Assembly: GCF_003334765.1 (NCBI RefSeq)
Contig: NZ_QOWT01000042.1
DNA length: 30,886 nt
Source of the DNA: Escherichia coli
GTDB taxonomy: Bacteria; Pseudomonadota; Gammaproteobacteria; Enterobacterales; Enterobacteriaceae
Strand: one strand, 5' to 3'
Of the stretch, positions 20,884 through 23,111 are shown piece by piece. Position numbers and translations under genes: made by a program. The first letter of the stretch is position 1. Every line of letters begins with the position of its first letter. The notes beneath the pieces are model-generated. The model saw nothing but the letters and a program-made list of their open reading frames with translations. It was not told the origin of the DNA and did not search any database.

Positions 20884-20964
20884 GGGCGGATAAGGCGTTT
20901 TTGCCGCATCCGCCGTTCTGTGCACAATGCCTGATGCGACGCTGGCGCGTCTTATCATGCCTAC
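20884..20964. repeat. REP/BIME pair downstream of proX
   Basis: gggcggataaggcgtttttgccgcatccgcc (20884-20913) and gcctgatgcgacgctggcgcgtcttatcatgcctac (20929-20964) are typical REP palindromes. Confidence 0.65.
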
Positions 20965-21065
20965 AAACCACATCGCACATTTCAACAATCTATCTTTCAT
21001 CCCATATTCATCAACATCCGCTATTATTGATTTCCAGCTTAATCATCACCTGATGAACAAAAATA

Positions 21066-22250
21066 ATGACTAAACCTAATCATGAGCTTAGCCCGGCGCT
21101 GATCGTGCTGATGTCTATCGCCACCGGTCTGGCGGTAGCCAGTAACTATTACGCCCAGCCATTGCTCGACACCATCGCGCGTAACTTTTCCCTTTCCGCC
21201 AGTTCGGCAGGCTTTATTGTTACCGCCGCGCAGTTGGGCTATGCCGCAGGTCTACTGTTTCTTGTTCCCCTCGGTGATATGTTTGAACGCCGCCGCCTGA
21301 TTGTCTCGATGACCTTACTGGCGGCATGCGGCATGTTGATTACCGCCAGCAGTCAGTCGCTGGCGATGATGATCCTCGGTACGGCATTAACCGGTTTATT
21401 CTCAGTCGTGGCACAAATTCTGGTTCCGCTGGCAGCGACGCTGGCTTCACCGGATAAACGCGGCAAAGTGGTTGGCACTATTATGAGCGGTCTGCTGTTG
21501 GGGATCTTGCTGGCACGGACAGTTGCCGGATTGCTGGCGAATCTCGGCGGCTGGCGCACCGTCTTTTGGGTTGCTTCGGTGTTAATGGCACTGATGGCGC
21601 TGGCATTATGGCGTGGTCTGCCACAAATGAAATCAGAAACCCACCTCAACTACCCACAGTTGTTGGGTTCCGTTTTCAGTATGTTTATCAGCGATAAAAT
21701 TCTGCGTACCCGCGCGTTGCTGGGCTGCCTGACCTTTGCCAATTTCAGCATTCTCTGGACCTCAATGGCCTTTTTGCTTGCCGCTCCACCTTTTAACTAC
21801 AGCGATGGTGTCATTGGTCTGTTTGGACTTGCGGGAGCTGCCGGAGCGTTGGGCGCTCGTCCGGCGGGCGGTTTTGCCGATAAGGGCAAATCGCACCACA
21901 CCACAACTTTCGGTCTGCTGCTGCTATTACTTTCATGGCTGGCGATCTGGTTTGGTCACACTTCCGTACTGGCGTTGATTATCGGAATCCTGGTGCTGGA
22001 TCTCACCGTGCAGGGCGTGCATATCACTAACCAGACGGTAATTTATCGGATACATCCTGATGCGCGCAATCGCCTGACCGCAGGTTACATGACTAGCTAC
22101 TTTATTGGCGGTGCCGCCGGTTCGCTAATTTCAGCCTCAGCCTGGCAACATGGCGGTTGGGCTGGCGTTTGTCTGGCTGGCGCGACGATTGCCCTGGTTA
22201 ACTTACTGGTCTGGTGGCGAGGTTTTCATCGTCAGGAAGCCGCAAATTAA
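21066..22250 (+). CDS. ygaY: Major-facilitator-superfamily transporter, 394 aa, intact
   Basis: Uninterrupted track ORF with MFS-like hydrophobic profile; position between proX and ygaZ corresponds to ygaY. Confidence 0.8.
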   Translation: MTKPNHELSPALIVLMSIATGLAVASNYYAQPLLDTIARNFSLSASSAGFIVTAAQLGYAAGLLFLVPLGDMFERRRLIVSMTLLAACGMLITASSQSLAMMILGTALTGLFSVVAQILVPLAATLASPDKRGKVVGTIMSGLLLGILLARTVAGLLANLGGWRTVFWVASVLMALMALALWRGLPQMKSETHLNYPQLLGSVFSMFISDKILRTRALLGCLTFANFSILWTSMAFLLAAPPFNYSDGVIGLFGLAGAAGALGARPAGGFADKGKSHHTTTFGLLLLLLSWLAIWFGHTSVLALIIGILVLDLTVQGVHITNQTVIYRIHPDARNRLTAGYMTSYFIGGAAGSLISASAWQHGGWAGVCLAGATIALVNLLVWWRGFHRQEAAN

Positions 22251-22373
22251 GCAATCAGCAACCGTTTTCGTGGCTTTACACTTATAAGGGTGTTAAGAAG
22301 CCCATCAGTCTGATAAGGTTAAGATATTCATTCAGTCTATTTATAATATTAACAATCGTTAAGCGTACACTCT

Positions 22374-23111
22374 ATGGAAAGCCCTACTCCACAGCCTGCT
22401 CCTGGTTCGGCGACCTTCATGGAAGGATGCAAAGACAGTTTACCGATTGTTATTAGTTATATTCCGGTGGCCTTTGCGTTCGGTCTGAATGCGACCCGTC
22501 TGGGATTCTCTCCTCTCGAAAGCGTTTTTTTCTCCTGCATCATTTATGCAGGCGCGAGCCAGTTCGTCATTACCGCGATGCTGGCAGCCGGGAGTAGTTT
22601 GTGGATTGCTGCACTGACCGTCATGGCAATGGATGTTCGCCATGTGTTGTATGGCCCGTCACTGCGTAGCCGTATTATTCAGCGTCTGCAAAAATCGAAA
22701 ACCGCCCTGTGGGCGTTTGGCCTGACGGATGAGGTTTTTGCCGCCGCAACCGCAAAACTGGTACGCAATAATCGCCGCTGGAGCGAGAACTGGATGATCG
22801 GCATTGCCTTCAGTTCATGGTCATCGTGGGTATTTGGTACGGTAATAGGGGCATTCTCCGGCAGCGGCTTGCTGCAAGGTTATCCCGCCGTTGAAGCTGC
22901 ATTAGGTTTTATGCTTCCGGCACTCTTTATGAGTTTCCTGCTCGCCTCTTTCCAGCGCAAACAATCTCTTTGCGTTACCGCAGCGTTAGTTGGTGCCCTT
23001 GCAGGCGTAACGCTATTTTCTATTCCCGTCGCCATTCTGGCAGGCATTGTCTGTGGCTGCCTCACTGCGTTAATCCAGGCATTCTGGCAAGGAGCGCCCG
23101 ATGAGCTATGA
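22374..23111 (+). CDS. ygaZ: AzlC-family branched-chain amino-acid (valine) exporter large subunit, 245 aa
   Basis: Track ORF; polytopic membrane protein; overlaps ygaH by 11 nt. Confidence 0.85.

Follow-up and report, generated by a model that had tools for sequence, protein, structure and literature searches.

The ygaY locus of Escherichia coli: an intact gene for a probable YnfM-family transporter and its disrupted allele in K-12

The gene ygaY (b2681) is annotated in the K-12 genome NC_000913.3 as a pseudogene of 1178 bp, and an earlier note on the E. coli DNA studied here had read the same gene as intact. The locus raises the question which of the two alleles is the original one, what the intact gene encodes and how the K-12 allele came about. 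The window, i.e. the whole stretch of DNA that was analysed, comprises 30,886 nucleotides of contig NZ_QOWT01000042.1 (RefSeq assembly GCF_003334765.1). Its positions 21066-22250 very probably represent the wild-type, functional ygaY, coding for a 12-helix secondary transporter of the major facilitator superfamily (MFS) that belongs to the YnfM family (TC 2.A.1.36), and the K-12 pseudogene is very probably derived from this state. The pseudogene status of K-12 ygaY is already known from the reference annotation and is widely relied on, and annotations of other genomes routinely list the intact gene as 'MFS transporter'; the finding is correct, not new. Minor additions made here are the nature of the lesion as a repeat unit, the G88C pre-mutation, the deletion in isolate S115 and the almost clean division of the protein into residues 1-88 and 90-394. 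These details concern molecular evolution and do not describe a new kind of system.

The intact gene and its protein

The position of the gene in the window is as follows.

21066..22250, plus strand: ygaY coding sequence, single open reading frame (ORF) with ATG start, 394 amino acids plus stop, no internal stop codons

The earlier note had claimed an uninterrupted, full-length gene of 394 codons for an MFS transporter, and both parts of this claim were borne out. The ORF listing shows one open frame on the plus strand (1185 bp), and the Pfam profile MFS_1 (PF07690) matches both halves of the product, at residues 17-273 (E = 8.5e-32) and 218-385 (E = 3.2e-11). The protein shows no amino acid difference from RefSeq WP_000165680.1, the 'MFS transporter' of non-K-12 E. 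coli encoded by the CDS of strain SW070919. Orthologs of 394 amino acids each and 93-98% identity occur in E. fergusonii, E. marmotae, Citrobacter and Salmonella; those of E. albertii have 391-393 amino acids and 95-96% identity. Within the species, the gene of BL21 differs from that of the window in 12 nucleotides and one amino acid (C88G; WP_000165699.1 in BL21(DE3)), and the gene of ST131 in 46 nucleotides and two amino acids (WP_000165701.1). Against four outgroups, dN/dS is 0.040-0.042 at dS values from 0.28 to 1.12. Judged by these ratios, ygaY is under strong purifying selection, which argues that the gene is functional in nature. The Pfam matches, the orthologs and the low dN/dS together establish the ORF as real and exclude a chance frame.

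A family search yielded 1,152 clusters at 50% identity (E <= 1e-30), from which 104 diverse members were aligned. The AlphaFold2 model based on this alignment (mean pLDDT 95.4, pTM 0.93) is all-helical and consistent with 12 transmembrane helices. Membership in the MFS is indicated by the MFS_1 profile in both halves, by the twelve helices and by the superposition of the model on solved 12-helix MFS proteins with TM-scores of 0.84-0.90. The best solved folds found with Foldseek were the proton-coupled exporters SotB (6kkl, 6kkk; TM-score 0.84-0.90), MdfA (6euq, 4zp0; 0.81-0.86) and NorA (8ttf; about 0.80-0.85), with an rmsd of 2.4-4.3 Å over approximately 380-394 columns and a sequence identity of 15-17%. 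A sequence search of the PDB gave weak matches only (GlcP, EmrD and SotB), the best of them (E = 6e-9) in the N-terminal half. Motif A (G-x-x-x-D-R/K-x-G-R-R/K-like), expected in the helix 2-3 loop, is found at residues 68-78 as PLGDMFERRRL, a variant spelling judged by eye. All 104 aligned family members have P68, at least 90% of them have G70 and D71, and R75/R76 are shared by at least 75%.

A specific NCBIfam family name was unassignable, since none of the 27 weak matches to YgaY came near its curated cut-off. The top match, to the aromatic acid/H+ symporter subfamily, reached 78.5 bits (cut-off 418.55) and covered only the N-terminal half. The sugar efflux model NF002921 scored 64 bits (cut-off 401), and the DHA1 models TIGR00710 (Bcr/CflA) and NF008314 scored 52.0 bits (cut-off 200.9) and 52 bits (cut-off 303), respectively. 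The antiporter motif C has the form G-x8-G-x3-G-P-x2-G-G. YgaY residues 129-160 (PDKRGKVVGTIMSGLLLGILLARTVAGLLANL), which include helix 5, do not contain the GP dipeptide of this motif, and the identity of YgaY to the DHA1 antiporters is 15-17%. An assignment to DHA1 (TC 2.A.1.2) was dropped, because the models stayed below their cut-offs and motif C is absent.

The placement in the YnfM family is based on TCDB and on full-length homology. In the TCDB listing, as cited in PMC5417439, YgaY (P76628) is entered as 2.A.1.36.3, YnfM family, with the function 'Unknown'; the earlier statement that function and substrate of YgaY are uncharacterised agrees with this listing and holds as far as checked. 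BLASTP of YgaY against YnfM of MG1655 gave 26% identity over 409 columns, covering the full length (E = 6e-21). YnfM (b1596), the name-giver of TC 2.A.1.36, is likewise a 12-helix MFS protein and is too distant for substrate transfer. The ynfM gene is paired with the LysR regulator gene ynfL, whereas ygaY has no adjacent regulator.

A 596-aa predicted protein on a 5,428-bp ENA contig (P0001) scored 1089 bits at 73% identity, and the 100% identical 394-aa protein (P0002) 837 bits. The longer protein suggests a partial tandem duplication or fusion of ygaY on this single metagenomic contig, or an assembly artefact.

Neighbourhood, regulation and transport

The features surrounding ygaY and those at the far end of the window are listed below.

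20884..20961, plus strand: REP-type palindromic element (REP/BIME) in the spacer between proX and ygaY, matching Rfam naRNA4 (RF02564) with 72.2 bits (gathering score 59.5)
21006..21035, plus strand: conserved upstream block ATTCATCAACATCCGCTATTATTGATTTCC, 31-60 nt before the ygaY ATG, from a five-taxon alignment
22319..22347, plus strand: sigma-70 promoter of ygaZH, TTAAGA-17-TATAAT, from a scan, 10/12 matches
22374-23111: ygaZ, downstream of ygaY
23101-23436: ygaH, downstream of ygaZ
23527-24057: mprA, followed by emrAB
27559-27630: MicA sRNA
30544-30617 and 30819-30886, minus strand: tRNA genes of the argQ/Z/Y/V array, the second cut by the window end

The gene order is that of MG1655. The operon proVWX lies upstream of ygaY, and ygaZH and mprA-emrAB, rightly named as neighbours in the earlier note, are all present. 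On a contig of Salmonella serovar Saintpaul (7186-7681), ygaY is followed by mprA-emrAB after a gap of approximately 500 bp and ygaZH is missing; the adjacency of ygaY and ygaZH is thus not universal, whereas that of proVWX and ygaY is. The ygaZH genes have their own promoter at 22319..22347, the hexamers of which are the same as those of an experimental constitutive RpoD promoter upstream of ygaZ (PMC3946193).

The REP element marks the boundary between proVWX and ygaY and leads to several match places per genome in a database search. E. albertii has an extra copy of a naRNA4-type REP element in this spacer. Of the conserved block, the core CATCCGCTAT(T/G)ATTG is kept as far as Salmonella, in a spacer that is otherwise diverged and AT-rich (34% GC), and the block may be a promoter or operator of ygaY. 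A scan for sigma-70 promoters in the 100 nt upstream of ygaY gave no consensus promoter, and no clear Shine-Dalgarno sequence was seen upstream of the gene. Terminator-like matches inside ygaY are at chance level (three found, 1.9 expected). A 6-codon upstream ORF (ATGAACAAAAATAATGACTAA, 21053-21073) that overlaps the ygaY start was rejected as a chance frame; its ATG is ATA in E. albertii, and the sequences of Citrobacter and Salmonella have diverged.

An IS5-family element has inserted in ygaQ, and its final 74 bases make up window positions 1-74, with TTAA directly after them (junction 74/75). MG1655 has no insertion at that position of ygaQ, which is also a pseudogene in K-12, and in the wastewater isolate SW070919 an IS5-like transposase of the ISKpn26 family is annotated at the same site. 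The IS5 end and the tRNA array suggest that an entire contig, delimited by repeats, makes up the window.

Published work on K-12 shows a low level of ygaY transcripts with a moderate increase after salt shock, an increase that the authors attributed to read-through from proVWX or to local decompaction; an H-NS-mediated bridge connects the downstream regulatory element of proVWX with ygaY (10.1101/2023.07.10.548347; 10.64898/2026.02.10.705075). At steady state the proVWX and ygaY transcripts indicate insulation (10.1101/2023.07.10.548347). Expression of the intact ygaY would be weak and would start from the gene's own AT-rich upstream region, which H-NS contacts; some proVWX read-through would be added after osmotic upshift.

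The transport activity associated with the YnfM family is dicarboxylate/glutarate efflux, together with an acriflavine phenotype. YnfM itself was described as a proton-coupled exporter of glutarate in E. coli BL21(DE3) and C. glutamicum, and in BL21(DE3) glutarate export was no longer detectable once ynfM alone had been deleted (PMC12622518). Since ygaY is intact in this strain, YgaY is unlikely to be a major glutarate exporter in BL21(DE3) under those conditions. The Salmonella ortholog of YnfM has been claimed as a copper importer (PMC13101709), so the YnfM family is not uniformly composed of exporters. YgaY would operate by proton-gradient-driven alternating access of the rocker-switch type, with a small organic metabolite as the putative substrate. 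That it exports such a metabolite has about an even chance of being correct, and export is considered likelier than import. Genomic context gave no hint at the substrate: the four distant homologs considered (46-57% identity) share no conserved neighbour, being flanked by an AraC-type regulator and an FMN-binding protein, by housekeeping genes, or by flagellar genes. No experiment on intact YgaY was found in the literature, nor did the examined papers that mention ygaY report a function; searches under b2681, b2680 and ygaX returned almost only unrelated papers.

YgaY might instead be an importer or symporter, e.g. of an osmoprotectant-related or an aromatic/organic acid solute, functionally tied to uptake by proVWX; this is possible and rather doubtful. 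Escherichia, Citrobacter and Salmonella all keep proVWX next to ygaY, also at loci that lack ygaZH, although among closely related enterics this adjacency may reflect shared ancestry. The rise of ygaY transcripts after salt shock fits a tie to proVWX and is attributed to read-through, but the REP element lies between proX and ygaY and the steady-state transcripts indicate insulation. The best NCBIfam match, far below its cut-off, is to the aromatic acid/H+ symporter subfamily, and a YnfM-family protein is claimed to import copper; against this, the closest solved folds are those of the exporters SotB, MdfA and NorA, and YnfM of E. coli and C. glutamicum exports.

A more specific proposal is that YgaY takes part in osmoadaptation together with ProU, e.g. 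by releasing or exchanging compatible solutes or a metabolite related to them. The proposal was raised because proVWX is conserved immediately upstream, is joined to ygaY by the same H-NS bridge and is co-induced with it through read-through after salt shock, and it is regarded as a long shot. If it were true, the role would have been missed, as nearly all work on osmoregulation was done in K-12, a lineage with a broken ygaY.

Quite apart from substrate and direction, the gene could be intact yet effectively silent, i.e. cryptic and drifting towards loss, with K-12 as the first sampled lineage to lose it. The lack of a consensus promoter and of a Shine-Dalgarno sequence upstream would fit such a state, as would the low transcripts and the H-NS contact in K-12 and the occurrence of two independent frameshift deletions at one site (in K-12 and S115, see below). 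The loss is also tolerated in the laboratory, where K-12 ygaY serves as a neutral control and integration locus: it was deleted as a pseudogene control (10.1101/072470), the wording 'crypticity of ygaY' has been used (10.1101/2023.07.10.548347), and several metabolic-engineering papers mention the K-12 gene. However, a dN/dS of about 0.04 over dS values of up to 1.1 is incompatible with neutral drift, 44 of the 46 nucleotide differences between ST131 and the window are synonymous, and the seven bases absent from K-12 are kept in more than 5,000 genomes. A silent gene is considered very improbable, and the preferred reading remains that of a gene in use in nature.

The K-12 lesion and its origin

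Two features within ygaY are needed to describe the lesion.

21288..21347, plus strand: transmembrane helix 3, codons 75-94, from DSSP on the model; site of the K-12 break (behind residue 88) and of the S115 deletion
21321..21334, plus strand: perfect 7-bp tandem doublet GCGGCAT GCGGCAT, codons 86-90 (A-A-C-G-M), from the MG1655 alignment, a base walk and lineage comparison

Alignment of the window with MG1655 located the lesion in the same locus between the same neighbours. All 1178 of the 1178 shared bases of ygaY are identical, and the sole difference is one gap of 7 bp; the K-12 gene is not intact over this interval. The earlier note had described K-12 ygaY as a split pseudogene, and this was accurate: the gene is annotated as a pseudogene, and the loss of 7 bp breaks its frame into two ORFs. 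The former designation ygaX/ygaY (b2680/b2681) and the older name '(ygaXY)', still used in PMC3946193, fit the description as two fragments.

K-12 ygaY keeps one GCGGCAT unit (gene nucleotides 256-262) and reads into a TGA after codon 88, whereas the window has two units and one frame of 394 codons and does not carry the single-unit allele. The first K-12 ORF (88 aa) is the same as residues 1-88 of the intact protein. The second (305 aa) runs from Met90 to the native stop and equals residues 90-394, leaving Gly89 alone missing; its ATG overlaps the stop of the first ORF (ATGTTGA). The hydropathy peak of YgaY at residues 78-96 coincides with helix 3, and columns 84-96 of the family alignment hold hydrophobic or small residues. 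Programmed frameshifting to restore the K-12 frame was set aside, as the sequence GGC GGC ATG TTG A contains no slippery sequence.

From the lactose permease literature it is known that split MFS permeases can complement each other when cut in loops, and that cuts within helices abolish function. The K-12 allele would still be alive if its 88-aa and 305-aa ORFs were both translated into a two-piece transporter that lacks only Gly89. The exact correspondence to residues 1-88 and 90-394 speaks for this, and the overlap of ATG and TGA within 7 nt could permit translational coupling. The cut falls inside helix 3, however, and not in a loop, no Shine-Dalgarno sequence precedes the ATG of the second ORF, and both the public annotation and the users of the locus treat K-12 ygaY as a pseudogene. 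A living two-piece allele is scarcely credible, and the K-12 gene is best regarded as a pseudogene.

The distribution of the two alleles was determined with a probe of 101 nt centred on the K-12 junction, which was searched in 5,426 complete E. coli genomes. A match was obtained in 5,418 of them, at an identity of at least 99% in 353 genomes, of 95-99% in none and of 80-95% in 5,065. In the sampled rows of the last group the match spans 108 nt instead of 101 in all but one, i.e. the seven bases are present. A 38-mer seeding solely on the K-12 junction retrieved the same 353 genomes. All 60 carriers sampled evenly from these 353 were K-12 derivatives by name or K-12-sized, the names including MG1655, BW25113, C600, J53, JM109, TG1, MC4100, S17-1 and EPI300. 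By this survey the 7-bp deletion lies on one haplotype and is private to the K-12 lineage. Practically all E. coli outside K-12 (5,065 of the 5,418 genomes with a match), like the outgroups, have an intact ygaY. BL21(DE3) carries the intact gene of 1185 bp as an ordinary CDS, and the gene is intact and so annotated in ST131, O157, ST69 and other strains. The suggestion of the earlier note that the window comes from a lineage retaining the functional allele stands insofar as the allele is intact; the lineage itself is not special, the intact state being near-universal and K-12 the exception.

Apart from the ygaY indel, window and MG1655 differ by four substitutions in 30,812 aligned bases, given here as window/MG1655.

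2841: G/C, lhgD
7593: A/C, gabP
14365: G/A, nrdE
30362: C/G, yqaB-argQ spacer

The window bases at 2841, 7593 and 14365 are common to natural isolates, and K-12 probably carries the derived bases at these three positions. Many natural isolates, among them ML35, NCTC9100 and poultry and human strains, match window positions 75-25000 at 100% identity. The possibility that the window represents a repaired or engineered K-12 was ruled out by this identity, by the four substitutions outside ygaY and by the IS5-family end in ygaQ.

The steps leading to the lesion can be followed by comparing codons 86-90 among lineages.

O157, ST131, 2013C-3250: GCA GCG GGC GGT ATG (AAGGM), nucleotide-identical to E. 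fergusonii at the site
BL21, ST69: GCG GCA GGC GGC ATG (AAGGM), 6 of 7 bases of the repeat
Window, SW070919, MSHS133: GCG GCA TGC GGC ATG (AACGM), G88C giving the perfect repeat
K-12: one repeat unit lost, frameshift

E. fergusonii, E. albertii, Citrobacter and Salmonella have the full-length frame and the same gene order, and the repeat at the site is imperfect in all four. A 44-mer seeding only on the perfect doublet found a match in 790 genomes. On these comparisons the perfect GCGGCAT repeat is a minority allele of E. coli, and the K-12 deletion arose on that background. The Cys88 of the window, set against the Gly88 of BL21-type proteins, belongs to this minority allele and completes the DNA repeat; it entails nothing else substantial. 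In the proposed sequence of events, G88C (GGC to TGC), present in part of E. coli, would have made a perfect 7-bp tandem doublet out of an imperfect repeat. One unit would then have been lost in the ancestor of all K-12 laboratory strains, most likely by replication slippage, a mechanism that sequence can suggest and not prove, and the loss would have brought a TGA into frame behind codon 88, halfway through helix 3. The reverse reading, in which the single copy of K-12 is ancestral and the lineage of the window gained 7 bp by duplication, has the formal symmetry of an insertion/deletion difference in its favour but is refuted by comparison with the outgroups and is given practically no chance: the frame is full-length in each of the four outgroups and in every non-K-12 E. 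coli sampled, and the deletion is confined to one haplotype.

The urine isolate S115 (NZ_CP158441.1) has a 19-bp out-of-frame deletion in ygaY, equivalent to window positions 21317-21335 and annotated as 'frameshifted'. It is bounded by TTA microhomology and is independent of the K-12 lesion at the same site in helix 3. With two such independent events inside 20 bp, the site may be a small hotspot of mutation.

Significance of the loss in K-12

K-12 is without a transporter that is retained, under strong purifying selection, in practically all other E. coli. As its ygaY is broken, the knockout collections, fitness screens and transporter surveys made in K-12 cannot reveal the function of YgaY, and the K-12 locus is in use as a neutral control or integration site. 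In BL21(DE3), with its intact ygaY, a direct study of the gene is possible.
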